64,000 bases of DNA, from NCBI RefSeq assembly GCF_044324785.1, contig NZ_CP172127.1. One strand, given 5' to 3'. Positions within the stretch are counted from its first letter, which is position 1, and each line of letters starts with the position of its first letter. Positions 3,629 to 61,896 of the stretch are shown one piece after another. Below the pieces are notes generated by a model. It saw only the letters and a program-made list of their open reading frames with translations. It made no database searches and was not told the DNA's origin. A program made the translations under genes and the position numbers. The stretch comes from Escherichia coli. GTDB lineage: Bacteria > Pseudomonadota > Gammaproteobacteria > Enterobacterales > Enterobacteriaceae.

Positions 3629-3928
3629 ATGGCGCTTACAAAAGCTGAAATGTCAGAATATCTGTTTGATAAGCTTGGGCTTAGCAAGCGGGATGCCAAA
3701 GAACTGGTTGAACTGTTTTTCGAAGAGATCCGTCGCGCTCTGGAAAACGGCGAACAGGTGAAACTCTCTGGTTTTGGTAACTTCGATCTGCGTGATAAGA
3801 ATCAACGCCCGGGACGTAACCCGAAAACGGGCGAGGATATTCCCATTACAGCACGGCGCGTGGTGACCTTCAGACCCGGGCAGAAGTTAAAAAGCCGGGT
3901 CGAAAACGCTTCGCCCAAAGACGAGTAA
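3629..3928 (+). CDS. ihfA: integration host factor alpha subunit
   Basis: 99-aa [60 protein letters not shown]; HU/IHF fold signature. Confidence 0.95.
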
Positions 3929-3945
3929 TCTGATCTAACTAAAAA

Positions 3946-3966
3946 GGCCGCTCTGCGGCCTTTTTT
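3946..3966 (+). terminator. rho-independent terminator after ihfA (GGCCGC-tct-GCGGCC then TTTTTT)
   Basis: perfect 6-bp GC stem followed by a T6 run, seen in sequence. Confidence 0.75.
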
Positions 3967-4028
3967 CTTTTCACTGTCGAAGAGTCACCGTAAAATCAAC
4001 GCCATGACACTTCAGCAGAACGGATACC

Positions 4029-5009
4029 ATGCTGACACTTGCCCGCCAACAACAGCGACAAAATATTCGCTGGTTATTATGCCTGTCAGTTTTGATGCTG
4101 CTGGCGCTTCTCTTAAGCCTTTGCGCCGGTGAACAATGGATTTCGCCAGGTGACTGGTTTACTCCTCGTGGCGAACTGTTCGTCTGGCAAATTCGCCTGC
4201 CACGTACGCTGGCTGTATTGCTGGTTGGTGCGGCGCTGGCTATATCCGGCGCAGTAATGCAGGCGTTGTTTGAAAATCCTCTGGCAGAACCTGGACTACT
4301 TGGCGTCTCTAACGGCGCAGGCGTGGGGCTTATCGCCGCGGTATTGCTTGGGCAAGGGCAACTCCCAAACTGGGCACTAGGGCTGTGTGCGATTGCTGGC
4401 GCGCTTATCATCACTTTAATACTCTTACGTTTCGCCCGTCGTCATCTTTCGACCAGTCGGTTATTGCTGGCTGGCGTTGCATTAGGGATTATCTGTAGCG
4501 CACTAATGACGTGGGCTATCTACTTTTCCACCTCTGTTGATTTACGTCAGCTGATGTACTGGATGATGGGCGGTTTTGGCGGCGTAGACTGGCGGCAAAG
4601 CTGGCTGATGCTGGCATTGATCCCCGTGTTGTTGTGGATCTGTTGTCAGTCCAGACCGATGAATATGTTAGCACTTGGCGAGATCTCGGCGCGGCAACTG
4701 GGTTTACCCCTGTGGTTCTGGCGCAATGTGCTGGTGGCAGCGACCGGCTGGATGGTTGGCGTTAGTGTGGCGCTGGCGGGTGCTATCGGCTTTATTGGTC
4801 TGGTGATCCCACATATTCTCCGGCTGTGTGGTTTAACCGATCATCGCGTATTACTTCCCGGCTGCGCGCTGGCAGGGGCGAGCGCATTGCTGCTGGCTGA
4901 TGTTGTAGCACGCCTGGCATTAGCTGCCGCAGAGCTGCCTATTGGCGTGGTCACCGCAACGTTGGGTTCGCCGGTATTTATCTGGTTATTGTTAAAAGCA
5001 GGACGTTAG
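4029..5009 (+). CDS. btuC: vitamin B12 ABC transporter permease
   Basis: 326-aa polytopic membrane ORF; FecCD-type permease, position in btuCED. Confidence 0.93.
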
Positions 5010-28113: not shown

Positions 28114-28212
28114 AGGTTCTACTTAGCAAAGGTGCTTTAAAAAGTGAAGCGATGTTGTATCAGCATCCGTTCATTATTGTTGTAACAACGACAATTCCTT
28201 TCTGTGGAAAAA

Positions 28213-28569
28213 TTAACAAAGGCGCTCCAGATCGTGTGCATATAATTCAGCGGCTACCGATTGATAGATCTTCCAGTCAATAAAATTGCCATCAGGGTAG
28301 ACACGTTGAAACGCGGTTAAGTCAGGGAAAAAACGCATGGTGTTGTTGCCGATGCGGTTATTTATTTTCTCTATGATGGCATGAAGATGTTTTTTTCGTT
28401 GCTGTCGCATAGCCAACAGTTGCTCGACCACACGATCAGGAATGGCGCATTTGCCATTTTCCCACTGATGCCAGCTTTCACAGTCTCCGGTCTGGGCAAT
28501 CCAGGTCGCGCATTCATCAATAGTCATGGCAAAAATATGGCGAAGAGCCTGGAGTTCATAAGCGTTCAT
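28213..28569 (-). CDS. ydiL: DUF1870-type small protein, unknown function
   Basis: ORF track 28213..28596; internal ATG gives the 118-aa MNAYELQALRHIF protein. Confidence 0.75.
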   Translation of the reverse strand: MNAYELQALRHIFAMTIDECATWIAQTGDCESWHQWENGKCAIPDRVVEQLLAMRQQRKKHLHAIIEKINNRIGNNTMRFFPDLTAFQRVYPDGNFIDWKIYQSVAAELYAHDLERLC

Positions 28570-28706
28570 CGTGTAATGGCTGCATGAAATAAACAATAAA
28601 ATATAAATAACATTATCAGCCTGCTGACGGCTTGAAGAGAGTCACAGTATCTTGTGCAACATTATTGGAAAGCGTGAGGGGCGAGGTAGCGAAGCGGAAA
28701 AATGTT

Positions 28707-28812
28707 AAAAAAAAGCCCATCGTGGGAGATGGGCAAAGACTACACACAGCAATTCGTTGTTTCACTCAGGGGATTTCCATGCTTATAAATCAATATGTTG
28801 ATTTATAACCGT
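28707..28812 (-). ncRNA. rprA: RprA small regulatory RNA (Hfq-dependent, activates rpoS translation)
   Basis: minus-strand sequence ACGGTTATAAATCAACATATTGATTTATAAGCATGGAAATCCCCTGAGTGAAACAACGAATTGCTGTGTGTAGTCTTTGCCCATCTCCCACGATGGGCTTTTTTT recognised as RprA, including the terminal hairpin plus U-run; lies between ydiL and ydiK. Confidence 0.85.
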
Positions 28813-28997
28813 GAGCTAATAGTAGGCATACGGACTTTTTGCGTCGATCAGATTCGTCTCATTAGTTTAAAAACTGTAAAGAATTTGCGACAGGTACTAC
28901 CAGCTGAATGGCGGTAAGCAGGAAAATATGGGGAAGAGCAAGCAAATATCAATTAGCGGTGGTTAACAATCAGGCGGCAGAGCCGCCTGATGAGAAA

Positions 28998-30110
28998 TTA
29001 CTTATTCGGTTTCTCGATTTCGCCAAGTTCTTCGAGAATTTCTTCCGGTTGGTCCGTCGGCGGTGGGACTTCTTCCACCCACGCGGCAAACAGACGCCAG
29101 GAAACGGCTAACAGAACCGGACCAATAAACAGACCGATCATCCCGAAAGCAATCAAACCACCAATAACGCCAGAGAGGATCAGGATCAGCGGTAAATCGG
29201 CACCCATGCGAATTAACATTGGGCGGATGACGTTATCCAGCGTGCCAACCACACCGCTCCACACTAACAATACCGTTCCCCAGGTGGTATCGCCGGTCCA
29301 GTAGAGCCAGATAATCGCCGGAATCAGTACCGGCAACGGTCCAAGCTGGACAAGGCAGGAGAGGATCATTAACACCGTGAGCAACGTTGCATAAGGTACG
29401 CCGGATACGGCGAGGCCGATACCGCCAAGCACTGCCTGTACTAACGCTGTCACCACAACACCCAGCGCCACCGCGCGGATAGCCTGTGCCGCCAGCAGCA
29501 CGGCGGCATCTCCGCGAACGCCTGCCAGACGGGTTGCAAAATGGCGAATGCCTTGTGCCACCTGTTCACCGCGCCAGTACAGCAGGGCACTGAAGAGAAG
29601 CATCAGCGCACAATGCACCATAAAGCGCCCGATATGCGCCGCTTGCCCAACGAACCAGGTGGTGGTGGTGCCAATATAAGGGCGGACTTTCGCCATGATC
29701 GCCGTACCCCCCATATCCAGCAAGTTGTGCCAGCCTGCATATAGCTTCGCGCCAATCACCGGAATGGTATTAAGCCACGCCAGATCGGGTAACGTCATGT
29801 CACCGCTGGAAATAGCTTTAATTAGCGGACCGCTGCCATCGACAATACTGTTAACCAACAAGGCAATAGGGATGATAAACACCATCACTAATAACAGCGT
29901 CATCACCAGAACGGCGAGAGAGCGGCGGCCAAACATGATCTTTTGCAAACGTAACAATACCGGCCAGGTGGCGATAACCACCGTACCGGCCCATGCAAAG
30001 CCGAGAATAAAGGGTTGAACAATCCACAGACATGCCACAATCATGATGGCTAAAAACAGCACCGAAAGCAGAATTTGTGCGACATCCCTGGGCTGACGAA
30101 CATTTACCAT
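28998..30110 (-). CDS. ydiK: AI-2E/UPF0118 family membrane transporter
   Basis: 370-aa polytopic ORF. Confidence 0.85.
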   Translation of the reverse strand: MVNVRQPRDVAQILLSVLFLAIMIVACLWIVQPFILGFAWAGTVVIATWPVLLRLQKIMFGRRSLAVLVMTLLLVMVFIIPIALLVNSIVDGSGPLIKAISSGDMTLPDLAWLNTIPVIGAKLYAGWHNLLDMGGTAIMAKVRPYIGTTTTWFVGQAAHIGRFMVHCALMLLFSALLYWRGEQVAQGIRHFATRLAGVRGDAAVLLAAQAIRAVALGVVVTALVQAVLGGIGLAVSGVPYATLLTVLMILSCLVQLGPLPVLIPAIIWLYWTGDTTWGTVLLVWSGVVGTLDNVIRPMLIRMGADLPLILILSGVIGGLIAFGMIGLFIGPVLLAVSWRLFAAWVEEVPPPTDQPEEILEELGEIEKPNK

Positions 30111-30498: not shown

Positions 30499-33400
30499 AT
30501 GATTCCACAGATTTCCCAGGCACCCGGCGTCGTTCAACTGGTGCTTAATTTTTTGCAAGAGCTGGAGCAACAGGGGTTTACCGGCGATACGGCGACAAGT
30601 TATGCCGATCGTCTGACAATGTCGACCGACAACAGTATTTACCAACTTCTCCCCGATGCGGTGGTATTTCCGCGTTCAACCGCAGATGTGGCGCTGATCG
30701 CCCGTCTTGCCGCGCAGGAACGCTATTCATCGCTGATCTTTACCCCCCGCGGCGGCGGCACCGGCACTAACGGTCAGGCGCTCAACCAGGGGATTATTGT
30801 TGATATGTCCCGCCATATGAACCGCATCATCGAAATTAACCCTGAAGAGGGCTGGGTGCGCGTTGAGGCCGGGGTGATTAAAGACCAACTCAATCAGTAC
30901 CTGAAACCGTTCGGCTACTTTTTTGCGCCGGAACTTTCGACCAGCAACCGGGCAACGCTAGGCGGGATGATCAATACCGATGCTTCTGGTCAGGGATCGC
31001 TGGTCTATGGCAAAACGTCAGATCACGTACTTGGCGTACGTGCAGTGTTGTTGGGGGGCGATATTCTCGATACGCAACCTTTACCCGTCGAACTGGCGGA
31101 AACGCTGAGTAAATCCAATACCACAATCGGGCGAATTTATAACACGGTTTATCAACGTTGCCGTCAGCAACGCCAGTTAATCATCGACAACTTCCCCAAA
31201 CTTAACCGCTTTCTTACCGGTTACGATCTGCGTCATGTCTTTAACGATGAGATGACCGAGTTCGACCTGACGCGCATTCTGACAGGTTCAGAAGGGACGC
31301 TGGCCTTTATTACCGAAGCGCGGCTGGATATTACGCCCTTGCCTAAAGTGCGCCGTCTGGTGAACGTCAAATATGACTCTTTTGACTCTGCGCTGCGTAA
31401 CGCGCCGTTTATGGTTGAGGCGCGGGCGCTTTCGGTAGAGACGGTTGACTCAAAAGTGCTGAATCTGGCGCGGGAAGATATTGTCTGGCATTCCGTCAGC
31501 GAGTTGATTACCGATGTGCCAGACAAAGAGATGCTCGGGCTGAACATTGTGGAATTTGCTGGTGATGATGAGACGCTGATTGATGAGCGGGTAAATGCAC
31601 TCTGTGCGCGGCTGGATGAACTTATCGCCAGTCAGCAAGCAGGTGTGATCGGCTGGCAGGTATGCAGTGAGCTGGCAGGTGTTGAGCGTATTTATGCAAT
31701 GCGCAAAAAAGCCGTTGGTCTGCTTGGCAATGCCAAAGGTGCCGCTAAGCCAATTCCGTTTGCTGAGGATACCTGCGTACCGCCGGAACATCTGGCCGAT
31801 TATATTGCTGAATTTCGCGCGCTGCTCGACAGCCACGGCTTAAGCTACGGTATGTTCGGTCACGTCGACGCAGGTGTCTTGCACGTCCGTCCGGCACTGG
31901 ATATGTGCGATCCACAACAAGAGATTTTGATGAAGCAAATCTCTGATGACGTAGTGGCGCTTACTGCGAAATACGGTGGTTTGTTGTGGGGCGAGCACGG
32001 CAAAGGTTTTCGCGCTGAATACAGCCCGGCGTTTTTCGGTGAGGAACTTTTTGCAGAACTGCGCAAAGTGAAAGCGGCATTTGACCCGCATAACCGACTC
32101 AACCCAGGGAAGATTTGCCCGCCAGAAGGTCTCGATGCGCCGATGATGAAAGTGGACGCGGTGAAGCGCGGTACATTCGATCGGCAGATCCCCATTGCGG
32201 TACGCCAGCAGTGGCGTGGTGCGATGGAGTGTAACGGCAACGGTTTATGCTTCAACTTTGATGCCCGCAGTCCGATGTGCCCGTCGATGAAGATCACCCA
32301 GAACCGGATTCATTCACCGAAAGGGCGCGCAACGCTGGTGCGTGAATGGCTGCGTTTGTTGGCGGATCGCGGCGTTGATCCACTCAAACTGGAACAAGAA
32401 CTGCCTGAATCCGGCGTCAGTTTGCGGACGTTAATTGCCCGCACGCGCAATAGCTGGCATGCGAATAAAGGCGAATATGACTTCTCACACGAAGTCAAAG
32501 AGGCGATGTCGGGCTGTCTGGCCTGTAAAGCTTGTTCGACCCAGTGCCCCATCAAAATTGATGTGCCGGAGTTTCGCTCTCGTTTTCTGCAGCTCTATCA
32601 CACCCGTTATTTACGCCCGCTGCGCGACCACCTCGTCGCTACGGTCGAGAGCTACGCGCCGCTGATGGCACGCGCGCCGAAAACCTTTAACTTCTTCATT
32701 AACCAGCCGCTGGTGCGCAAACTCTCGGAAAAACATATTGGCATGGTTGATTTGCCGCTGCTGTCGGTCCCCTCGCTACAACAACAAATGGTGGGGCATC
32801 GCTCGGCAAACATGACGCTGGAACAGCTTGAAGCTCTCAATGCAGAGCAGAAAGCGCGCACGGTGTTGGTGGTGCAGGACCCCTTTACCAGCTATTACGA
32901 TGCGCAAGTGGTGGCGGATTTTGTCCGTCTGGTTGAAAAATTAGGATTCCAGCCTGTGTTACTGCCATTTTCGCCAAATGGCAAAGCCCAGCATATCAAA
33001 GGCTTTCTTAATCGTTTTGCGAAGACGGCGAAAAAGACGGCGGATTTCCTCAACCGTGTGGCGAAGCTGGGGATGCCAATGGTGGGCGTCGATCCGGCGC
33101 TGGTACTTTGTTATCGCGATGAATATAAACTGGCGCTGGGCGAGGAACGTGGCGAGTTTAACGTCTTACTGGCGAATGAATGGCTCGCAAGCGCACTTGA
33201 GTCACAGCCAGTGGTTACAGTCAGCGGTGAATCATGGTATTTCTTTGGTCACTGTACCGAAGTTACCGCCTTGCCGGGCGCGCCAGCACAATGGGCGGCA
33301 ATATTTGCCCGTTTTGGCGCGAAACTGGAAAATGTCAGCGTGGGTTGCTGCGGCATGGCAGGGACTTACGGACATGAAGCGAAAAACCATAAAAATTCGC

Positions 33401-33555
33401 TCGGGATCTATGAGTTATCCTGGCATCAGGCGATGCAGCGACTGCCGCGTAATCGCTGTCTGGCGACCGGATATTCCTGCCGTAGTCAGGTCAAACGGGT
33501 TGAAGGCACGGGGGTACGCCATCCTGTGCAGGCTTTACTGGAGATTATTAAATGA
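30499..33555 (+). CDS. ydiJ: FAD-linked oxidoreductase with C-terminal Fe-S/CCG domains (reported D-2-hydroxyglutarate dehydrogenase)
   Basis: 1018-aa ORF; N-terminal GlcD/FAD-binding type 4 region, central CxxCxxCxxxCP motif (CLACKACSTQCP) and C-terminal Cys-rich region. Confidence 0.88.
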   Translation: MIPQISQAPGVVQLVLNFLQELEQQGFTGDTATSYADRLTMSTDNSIYQLLPDAVVFPRSTADVALIARLAAQERYSSLIFTPRGGGTGTNGQALNQGIIVDMSRHMNRIIEINPEEGWVRVEAGVIKDQLNQYLKPFGYFFAPELSTSNRATLGGMINTDASGQGSLVYGKTSDHVLGVRAVLLGGDILDTQPLPVELAETLSKSNTTIGRIYNTVYQRCRQQRQLIIDNFPKLNRFLTGYDLRHVFNDEMTEFDLTRILTGSEGTLAFITEARLDITPLPKVRRLVNVKYDSFDSALRNAPFMVEARALSVETVDSKVLNLAREDIVWHSVSELITDVPDKEMLGLNIVEFAGDDETLIDERVNALCARLDELIASQQAGVIGWQVCSELAGVERIYAMRKKAVGLLGNAKGAAKPIPFAEDTCVPPEHLADYIAEFRALLDSHGLSYGMFGHVDAGVLHVRPALDMCDPQQEILMKQISDDVVALTAKYGGLLWGEHGKGFRAEYSPAFFGEELFAELRKVKAAFDPHNRLNPGKICPPEGLDAPMMKVDAVKRGTFDRQIPIAVRQQWRGAMECNGNGLCFNFDARSPMCPSMKITQNRIHSPKGRATLVREWLRLLADRGVDPLKLEQELPESGVSLRTLIARTRNSWHANKGEYDFSHEVKEAMSGCLACKACSTQCPIKIDVPEFRSRFLQLYHTRYLRPLRDHLVATVESYAPLMARAPKTFNFFINQPLVRKLSEKHIGMVDLPLLSVPSLQQQMVGHRSANMTLEQLEALNAEQKARTVLVVQDPFTSYYDAQVVADFVRLVEKLGFQPVLLPFSPNGKAQHIKGFLNRFAKTAKKTADFLNRVAKLGMPMVGVDPALVLCYRDEYKLALGEERGEFNVLLANEWLASALESQPVVTVSGESWYFFGHCTEVTALPGAPAQWAAIFARFGAKLENVSVGCCGMAGTYGHEAKNHKNSLGIYELSWHQAMQRLPRNRCLATGYSCRSQVKRVEGTGVRHPVQALLEIIK

Positions 33556-34250: not shown

Positions 34251-34439
34251 TCCTGACTTAATGCCGCAAGTTCGCCATATCGACCTGGATTAATCTCCGT
34301 CCAGGTTCGATGGCCTTCTTAATACTGCTTATCTACCCGCCTGATATTGTTCAAAAATAATACTAATCGCAGTTTGTGTTAAAACGGCGGGTTAGCTTTA
34401 TGAGATTATTCTTATCGCCCCTTCAAGAGCTAAGCCACT

Positions 34440-34515
34440 GAGAGTGCCGGAGATAAGCGCCGGATGGGGTAGAAACCCTTAAGCCTGTGTCGCACAGACT
34501 TAAGGGTTTTCTTAT
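34440..34515 (+). ncRNA. rydB: candidate small RNA ending at an intrinsic terminator (possibly RydB, reported between ydiH and sufA)
   Basis: strong hairpin CCCTTAAG-loop-CTTAAGGG followed by TTTTC about 225 bp after ydiH and about 290 bp before sufA; 5' end not determinable from sequence; RydB identity is from memory of its map position, not sequence recall. Confidence 0.3.
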
Positions 34516-52179: not shown

Positions 52180-52485
52180 TCAGGCGAGTTTTGCCTGATT
52201 GATTTGACTCAGTGGCTCATTGACATCGAAAACTTTGGCGACAACTTCCTCAACGCCGAGATTTTTCAGTCGGGCAGTATGTTTTTCCAGATAGGCTAGG
52301 GCGCTTTTTTCATCAGTGAAAAGGTAGATCCCACCGGCTTCGTGGTTCTTTTCACTTTCTGTCCATACCTTCCACAGAAAACCAGGTTCCTGATTAATCG
52401 ACTCAGCAAGCGGTTTAAGCTGCTCAGCCATTGCGTCGCCAAATGGGCCATTAAAAGCAAAATGAAGTTGTAACAAAGTTGCCAT
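52180..52485 (-). CDS. ydhR: putative monooxygenase/dimeric alpha-beta barrel protein
   Basis: 101-aa ORF. Confidence 0.82.
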
Positions 52486-52592
52486 AGCGATTCTCCTTCT
52501 GATAACGCATACGAAGACAGTGTAAATCTTTTAACGTATTGGATACAGAGAAGAAACAGAGGGAAAAACGAGAAGACCAGATTAAGAAAATC

Positions 52593-52669
52593 TGGTGCGT
52601 CCGAGTGGACTCGAACCACCGACCCCCACCATGTCAAGGTGGTGCTCTAACCAACTGAGCTACGGACGC
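52593..52669 (-). tRNA. valW: tRNA-Val (anticodon GAC), distal copy of a tandem pair
   Basis: minus-strand GCGTCCGTAGCTCAGTTGGTTAGAGCACCACCTTGACATGGTGGGGGTCGGTGGTTCGAGTCCACTCGGACGCACCA: cloverleaf, GAC anticodon, encoded CCA; valV/valW naming is by position and could be swapped. Confidence 0.9.
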
Positions 52670-52673
52670 AGGA

Positions 52674-52750
52674 TGGTGCGTTCAATTGGACTCGAACCAA
52701 CGACCCCCACCATGTCAAGGTGGTGCTCTAACCAACTGAGCTATGAACGC
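52674..52750 (-). tRNA. valV: tRNA-Val (anticodon GAC), proximal copy of a tandem pair
   Basis: minus-strand GCGTTCATAGCTCAGTTGGTTAGAGCACCACCTTGACATGGTGGGGGTCGTTGGTTCGAGTCCAATTGAACGCACCA; differs from its neighbour by compensatory changes in the acceptor and T stems. Confidence 0.9.
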
Positions 52751-61343: not shown

Positions 61344-61387
61344 TCCATTTCACTCCAGACCCTAACTTCAGCTCCTGCAAAATCGCA

Positions 61388-61403
61388 AGGTAAACGTTTG
61401 CCT
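61388..61403 (-). promoter_or_regulatory. PUR-box-like operator in the purR leader (AGGCAAACGTTTACCT on the minus strand)
   Basis: AAACGTTT-centred palindrome about 45-60 nt upstream of the purR ATG; purR is autoregulated through operators in its leader. Confidence 0.55.
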
Positions 61404-61641
61404 TTACACACCTTACGCACAACAAAAGTGTTGCGGTACGCCGGAAAAACGACACGGAGCGTCAGGAAGGGGTCAATGGCCAGTACGCAAATAGTGTAAG
61501 CGTGGAATTTTGGCCGATCTTGACGAAAAGGGGAAGTGGTAAAAACACTTATCATTATAAATGACGGGAGATTTTTTCATCACAGTGTGTAAAAATGCGT
61601 AATATCACTTTTTGTGTGGTAATAAAAAAGGAGAAAACTTG

Positions 61642-61731
61642 ATGAGCACCGACCTTAAATTTTCACTGGTAACAACGATTATCGTCCTCGGTTTGATCGT
61701 GGCCGTGGGTTTGACAGCCGCGCTGCACTGA
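61642..61731 (+). CDS. ynhF: 29-aa single-TM small membrane protein
   Basis: ATG AGC ACC GAC ... CTG CAC TGA gives MSTDLKFSLVTTIIVLGLIVAVGLTAALH; GGAG Shine-Dalgarno 8 nt upstream; not in the ORF track because it is under 60 aa. Confidence 0.7.
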   Translation: MSTDLKFSLVTTIIVLGLIVAVGLTAALH

Positions 61732-61896
61732 TTTCCTCTCGAGGGAGCGCGTTCTCCCTCGCATCTCCTTCCTGTTTGTTAGCAAAATGGCAAAAGTGTT
61801 TTCTCTTTTTGTTATTTTCATTTTTTTGTGATTGCTGTCATGCTTTCGCCACTTTAATGAATATCGCGTAATGACGCGAAGAGGTGGAGATAAGGC

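Follow-up and report, generated by a model that had tools for sequence, protein, structure and literature searches.

rprA and its RcsB-activated promoter in the ydiK-ydiL intergenic region of an Escherichia coli genome

We examined the region between ydiK and ydiL in a window of Escherichia coli DNA, by which we mean the whole 64,000-nucleotide stretch of contig NZ_CP172127.1 that was analysed, numbered from its first letter. Strain N3 is 100% identical to it over a 1.2-kb query around rprA, and the RefSeq annotation of N3, in window coordinates, places ydiK at 28998..30110, rprA at 28705..28812 and ydiL at 28213..28569, all on the minus strand. The position of rprA between ydiK and ydiL holds in the RefSeq annotations of both N3 and K-12. 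The ydiK-ydiL intergenic region measures 428 bp (28570..28997) and is the otherwise empty gap of about 400 bp that a preliminary description of this DNA had pointed out; rprA and its mapped promoter account for 28707..28861 of it. The features are listed below, with promoter positions numbered from +1 at 28812.

28862..28884, minus strand: conserved A/T-rich block AAATTCTTTACAGTTTTTAAACTAA, -72 to -50 (cross-species conservation)
28848..28861, minus strand: RcsB box TGAGACGAATCTGA, 14 bp, -49 to -36, centre near -42.5 (consensus, identity to Salmonella, conservation)
28842..28847, minus strand: weak -35 hexamer TCGACG, -35 to -30 (sequence position and cross-species conservation)
28825..28841, minus strand: spacer of 17 bp, -29 to -13 (between the -35 and -10 hexamers)
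28819..28824, minus strand: -10 hexamer TACTAT, -12 to -7 (sequence position and cross-species conservation)
28707..28812, minus strand: rprA gene for the 106-nt RprA sRNA, with transcription start at 28812 and 3' end in the U-run (Rfam, RefSeq, identity to K-12)
28781..28810, minus strand: 5' stem-loop, RprA nt 3-32, an AU-rich hairpin UUAUAAAUCAA/UUGAUUUAUAA (MFE and centroid folds, covariation)
28741..28781, minus strand: target-pairing region, RprA nt 32-72, flanked by the two hairpins (largely single-stranded in the centroid fold)
28732..28753, minus strand: invariant 22-nt core ATTGCTGTGTGTAGTCTTTGCC, RprA nt 60-81 (exact match in at least 120 species-representative genomes)
28707..28734, minus strand: intrinsic terminator, stem GCCCATC/GATGGGC at 28734..28715 and 8-U tail at 28714..28707 (terminator scan)

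In a whole-window Rfam scan, the RprA family RF00034 matched 28705..28812 on the minus strand with 118.5 bits (E 1.6e-16) against a gathering score of 70, over model positions 1-108 of 108 and with no truncation. The preliminary description had let its assignment stand or fall with this model, and the model scores. It had also placed the sRNA on the minus strand from 28707, which is the end to which K-12 MG1655 b4431 (106 nt) maps in alignment (28812..28707). The gene is identical to b4431 at 106 of 106 nucleotides, as is all of the upstream sequence to the ydiK stop, promoter included; the single SNP in 451 aligned window bases lies at 28673, in the rprA-ydiL spacer downstream of the gene. 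When the locus is set against K-12 MG1655 rprA and RF00034, the gene, RcsB box, -35 and -10 hexamers, position between ydiK and ydiL and strand are all the same, and no difference falls inside the gene or the promoter. A permissive Rfam scan of 28200..29100 returned no second RNA family, only sub-threshold matches overlapping RprA. Taken together, all testable defining features are present and the locus is E. coli rprA itself rather than a relative. We regard it as close to certain that 28707..28812 on the minus strand is rprA, the gene of an RcsB-activated, Hfq-dependent sRNA acting on rpoS, with its own promoter in the ydiK-ydiL gap. Both the gene and its RcsB-activated promoter are already known, as the preliminary description had said of the element, and the locus is an ordinary one, identical to that of K-12.

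Of 5426 complete E. coli genomes, 5424 match the 1.2-kb query around rprA, and in one count 5380 hold the region. Gene and promoter together (176 nt) reach at least 99% identity in 5233 of the 5424 E. coli records with the rprA locus, whereas the 1.2-kb region with its flanking genes does so in only 28 of 5425 records, and the flanking genes are about 2% divergent from those of most E. coli genomes. On these counts, the sRNA locus is more constrained than its neighbours. Elsewhere in the window, the ydiJ ORF (30499..33555, plus strand, 1018 aa) is intact, whereas the N3 record marks ydiJ as frameshifted; either the window differs from the N3 assembly here or the N3 assembly has an error at ydiJ.

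Folding of the 106-nt RNA gave an AU-rich 5' hairpin, a largely open middle and a terminator (nt 79-98), with an energy of -25.8 kcal/mol (z -2.5 against shuffles). The GC hairpin and U-run named in the preliminary description correspond to a 7-pair stem with 5 G-C pairs (28734..28715) followed by TTTTTTTT, which together provide the 3' end and the Hfq-type tail characteristic of RprA. Over 104 distinct Enterobacterales sequences among the matches listed, 99.2% of terminator cells are paired and compensatory changes occur at 3 of the 7 pairs, for example C-G to U-A in 16 sequences. For the 5' hairpin, the same 104 listed sequences show changes on both sides at 8 of 9 outer-helix pairs and at all 3 inner pairs; here 78% of cells are paired, a lower value that arises because the 5' halves are non-alignable in distant genera. 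As a control, shifting the 3' partners by 1 to 3 columns lowered overall pairing from 86.6% to 26-46%. Directly 3' of the ydiK stop we also observed a perfect 10-bp stem, ATCAGGCGGC-TCT-GCCGCCTGAT (28969..28991, minus strand), with no T-run, which may stabilise the transcript or act as a weak terminator ahead of rprA.

The preliminary description had expected an RcsB box somewhere in 28813..28900, and the box lies within that region, at 28848..28861 on the minus strand. Its candidate segment corresponds to the 20-mer TGAGACGAATCTGATCGACG, which is found once in the window (28842..28861, minus strand; -49 to -30), and was correct for its first 14 nt, TGAGACGAATCTGA, which are the RcsB box; its last 6 nt, TCGACG, belong instead to the -35 hexamer. 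The box thus abuts the -35 hexamer, with -49..-36 lying directly against -35..-30. The core promoter TCGACG/TACTAT agrees with consensus at 8 of 12 positions, a weakness that is consistent with dependence on an activator. A generic sigma-70 scan of the window did not report the rprA promoter, because 8 of 12 positions falls below the scan threshold.

The structure-derived RcsB consensus is TN(G/A)GAN4TC(T/C)NA (PMC7913699), and in the comparison that the preliminary description had proposed, TGAGACGAATCTGA satisfies all nine specified positions. The same study reports that the Salmonella rprA promoter fragment CCTATTGAGACGAATCTGATCGG, spanning -53 to -33, is bound by RcsB both in EMSA and in a crystal structure (PMC7913699). 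The corresponding window sequence, CTAATGAGACGAATCTGATCG, matches 20 of the 21 native bases of this fragment. The 14-bp box TGAGACGAATCTGA is identical in the crystallised Salmonella Typhimurium 23-mer (PMC7913699), in the same register and at the same position; the one base that differs lies upstream of the box, at -50, which is A in the window and T in Salmonella. Among the 111 species listed in the box-anchored comparison described below, 79 have T and 30 have A here. Later papers credit Majdalani et al. 2002 with having first mapped the RcsB box. Papers that cite the earlier E. coli work state that the dependence of rprA on rcsB was shown experimentally in that species. In Erwinia amylovora, rprA has the same arrangement of box and -35, and its rcsB dependence has been shown experimentally (PMC7814967); PMC12388358 contains no rprA promoter footprint. 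By its identity to the RcsB-bound Salmonella box, 28848..28861 is the predicted RcsB binding site of this promoter.

One could argue that the box is a chance match and that rprA is transcribed here without direct RcsB input. The degenerate box pattern is not enriched in the window, where it occurs 4 times against 2.4 expected, and 24 of 100 shuffles give at least 4 matches. Since the pattern alone was not significant in the window, we used a cross-species conservation test instead. A strict RcsB box was found no more than 170 nt upstream in 112 of 116 usable rprA loci among the matches listed, about 300 times background, while the unspecified positions of the pattern are free to vary. A second count gave 113 boxes in the upstream segments of the listed loci, where the rate over the other 970 kb of these loci would predict 0.37. 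The significance of the box therefore comes from its position, its identity to a known RcsB-binding sequence and its cross-species conservation; together with the equal distance from the start in Salmonella and the rcsB dependence seen in E. coli and Erwinia, these make a chance box extremely improbable, and we retain direct activation by RcsB as the reading of this promoter. As a separate observation, a strict RcsB-box pattern, TGAGATTATTCTTA, occurs at 34401..34414, ending 3 nt before the Rfam rydB match at 34417..34477 (plus strand); it may be a chance match, as about 2.4 such patterns are expected per window.

The loci used in this test were obtained by scanning species-representative genomes with the 22-nt RprA core ATTGCTGTGTGTAGTCTTTGCC, which gave at least 120 loci. 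Among the matches listed, they span the Enterobacterales, including Escherichia, Citrobacter, Enterobacter, Pantoea, Erwinia, Serratia, Yersinia and Dickeya, and also Pectobacterium, Proteus, Providencia, Morganella, Photorhabdus, Xenorhabdus, Arsenophonus and others. We then aligned the loci of 111 species on the box without gaps, an arrangement in which -35 and -10 signals are not imposed by the pattern. Among these listed matches, the -35 region keeps G-33 in 108, A-32 in 104 and C-31 in 93 of the 111 species, and the -10 keeps T-12 in 104, A-11 in 104, A-8 in 103 and T-7 in 106; the promoter spacer is unconserved. Because these positions are kept in an alignment that has no gaps, the box, the -35 GAC and the -10 TAnTAT stand at fixed spacing in more than 100 species.

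Two ordinary-looking rprA loci, those of Edwardsiella ictaluri and E. hoshinae, are the only listed ones of this kind that have no strict RcsB box within 170 nt upstream. They carry a conserved AACTAT followed by CGTCATAGTAAT where the box would stand, and their RNA has a longer, different 5' half. In the window itself, Rfam RF02766 (Ysr49, Yersinia sRNA 49) gave a sub-threshold match at 28709..28802 on the minus strand, with 25.6 bits versus a gathering score of 95. The Yersinia loci share the 22-nt core and the terminator with RprA and likewise have an RcsB box upstream, whereas their 5' halves are not alignable with that of E. coli RprA. Because of this shared core, terminator and box, Ysr49 probably corresponds to the RprA orthologue of Yersinia, listed under a family of its own.

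The A/T-rich block directly upstream of the box is also conserved: among the matches listed, A-51 is kept in 109, A-55 in 90, T-52 in 89, T-67 in 85 and A-72 in 85 of 111 species. It may reflect extended RcsB contacts, a UP-like element contacted by the RNA-polymerase alpha subunit, or a second regulator such as CpxR. In a preprint, RprA is listed with the sRNAs under direct CpxR control (10.1101/2024.10.18.618624). A 2-mismatch match to the CpxR consensus GTAAA-N5-GTAAA lies at 28866..28880; such matches are common, with 76 in the window against 55 expected, so we set this one aside as evidence and keep it as a candidate only. We consider it possible, though on balance doubtful, that 28862..28884 is a distinct binding site of a second regulator, with CpxR as one candidate.

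It could also be proposed that no independently transcribed gene lies here, and that the interval holds a degenerate or silent rprA copy or a 3' piece of read-through from ydiK. Some read-through is conceivable, as the hairpin after the ydiK stop has no T-run, and the sigma-70 scan reported a consensus promoter-like match further upstream (28952..28923), which is unrelated and was not taken as evidence on rprA. Against this, gene and promoter do not differ from those of K-12, where the locus has been characterised experimentally, the within-species conservation described above holds at 99% identity or more, and the -10, -35 and box keep their fixed spacing across species; a silent copy is thus highly unlikely, and an independently transcribed rprA is the reading that we carry forward. 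Equally remote is a small protein encoded instead of, or besides, the regulatory RNA: two mechanical ORFs overlap the gene (28616..28765, minus strand, 49 aa, GTG start; 28632..28808, plus strand, 58 aa, TTG start), but we rejected both as coding, as neither is annotated in K-12 or N3, the 5' half varies by indels, conservation follows paired stems and the nucleotide core rather than codons, with no codon-periodic conservation seen in the cross-species rprA comparison, and the minus-strand ORF would cross the terminator.

It has been previously reported that the Rcs phosphorelay activates rprA in K-12 (PMC3465796, PMC4152358, PMC5861431), and that K-12 RprA, together with Hfq, opens the rpoS ribosome-binding site by pairing with the upstream arm of the leader hairpin (PMC4152358). 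Hfq binding and rpoS activation in vivo are known for the identical K-12 RNA (PMC4152358, PMC5861431). Beyond this, RprA acts as a repressor of csgD and ydaM, and the mRNAs that co-purify with it include rpoS/nlpD, hdeD and lrhA (PMC3465796, PMC4152358, PMC5861431). The genes rcsB, hfq and rpoS all lie outside the 64-kb window, and from the identity to K-12 and Salmonella we infer that expression, Hfq dependence and RcsB dependence of rprA would be the same in this strain. RprA is known to be processed by RNase E, and ricI is one of its targets.

From identity to the characterised sequences, envelope stress would act through RcsC and RcsD to phosphorylate RcsB, and an RcsB dimer on the pseudo-palindromic box at -49..-36, placed against the weak -35, would in turn promote transcription from 28812. 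The single-stranded middle of RprA is predicted in silico to be complementary to the upstream arm of the self-inhibitory rpoS leader hairpin; as published experiments indicate, this pairing with Hfq would free the rpoS ribosome-binding site and lead to more RpoS synthesis. The same RNA would repress csgD and ydaM (dgcM) and bind hdeD and other mRNAs, so that envelope stress would be tied to the general stress response and biofilm control.

For the pairing, a duplex of whole-molecule RprA with the rpoS leader gave meaningless end-to-end pairing and was rejected; the prediction was redone with the single-stranded middle of RprA against 60-nt windows of the leader. The best duplex of RprA nt 32-72 on the 568-nt K-12 rpoS leader falls at -135..-93 from the AUG, with -32.4 kcal/mol. 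When the leader is folded by itself, this site is the arm paired to the start region. The energy is modestly better than that of shuffles, 9 of 200 shuffled queries equalling it anywhere on the leader. DsrA and ArcZ are likewise Hfq-dependent and also free the ribosome-binding site by base-pairing to the same upstream leader arm of rpoS (PMC4152358). They differ from RprA in that their sequences are unrelated to it and their loci are different. The signals also differ: DsrA responds to low temperature, ArcZ to the ArcB/ArcA redox state and RprA to Rcs envelope stress.

Other above-threshold Rfam matches in the window were STnc550 (61344..61734, plus strand, 395.9 bits), STnc540 (3870..4028, plus strand) and rydB, given above. 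Two tRNAs lie at 52469..52631 on the plus strand, and an HPnc0260 'antisense' match (52596..52750, minus strand) overlaps the tRNA genes on the opposite strand; it probably reflects tRNA sequence only.

Outside the window, we found the invariant RprA 3' core, ATTGCTGTGTGTAGTCTTTGCCC, together with a terminator on mobile DNA, where it stands behind an unrelated GC-rich 5' segment and has no RcsB box. It occurs on an 89-kb phage-plasmid-like replicon of E. coli CH468 (NZ_JBRBPZ010000006.1, record positions 31068..31115; 3940-4060 in our extracted locus L124), on identical 88-90-kb Enterobacter plasmids and in the Escherichia phages LLS, Eeyore and Flotzy. In phage Eeyore (PP925821.1; 2501-2600 in our extracted locus L125), the core is found some 470 bp downstream from a gene for a CI-like repressor, under a CDS annotated as 'hypothetical protein'. 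The core was also found at two probable prophage loci (L086 and L106). Furthermore, Phytobacter massiliensis (NZ_HE578945.1) has, beside a normal copy (L047), a second locus (L048) in which RprA nt ~37-106 are exact, the 5' part is different and there is no RcsB box; this second copy could be a mobile variant, or a partial duplication of the kind that integration of an element can leave behind. The phage and plasmid copies might represent a mobile-element mimic of the RprA seed. No description of the mobile core turned up in a limited literature search, and we regard it as the one lead of possible wider interest to come from this analysis.

The locus matters here as annotation only, in that it explains the central part of the 428-bp ydiK-ydiL gap. 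As a node that joins Rcs envelope-stress signalling to RpoS, curli and biofilm control, rprA is already established, and existing knowledge is unchanged by these results. The cross-species footprint neatly confirms control of rprA by RcsB as an ancestral trait of most Enterobacterales. If the A/T-rich block does prove to be bound by a further regulator, for example CpxR, two envelope-stress pathways would meet at neighbouring sites of the rprA promoter throughout the Enterobacterales.
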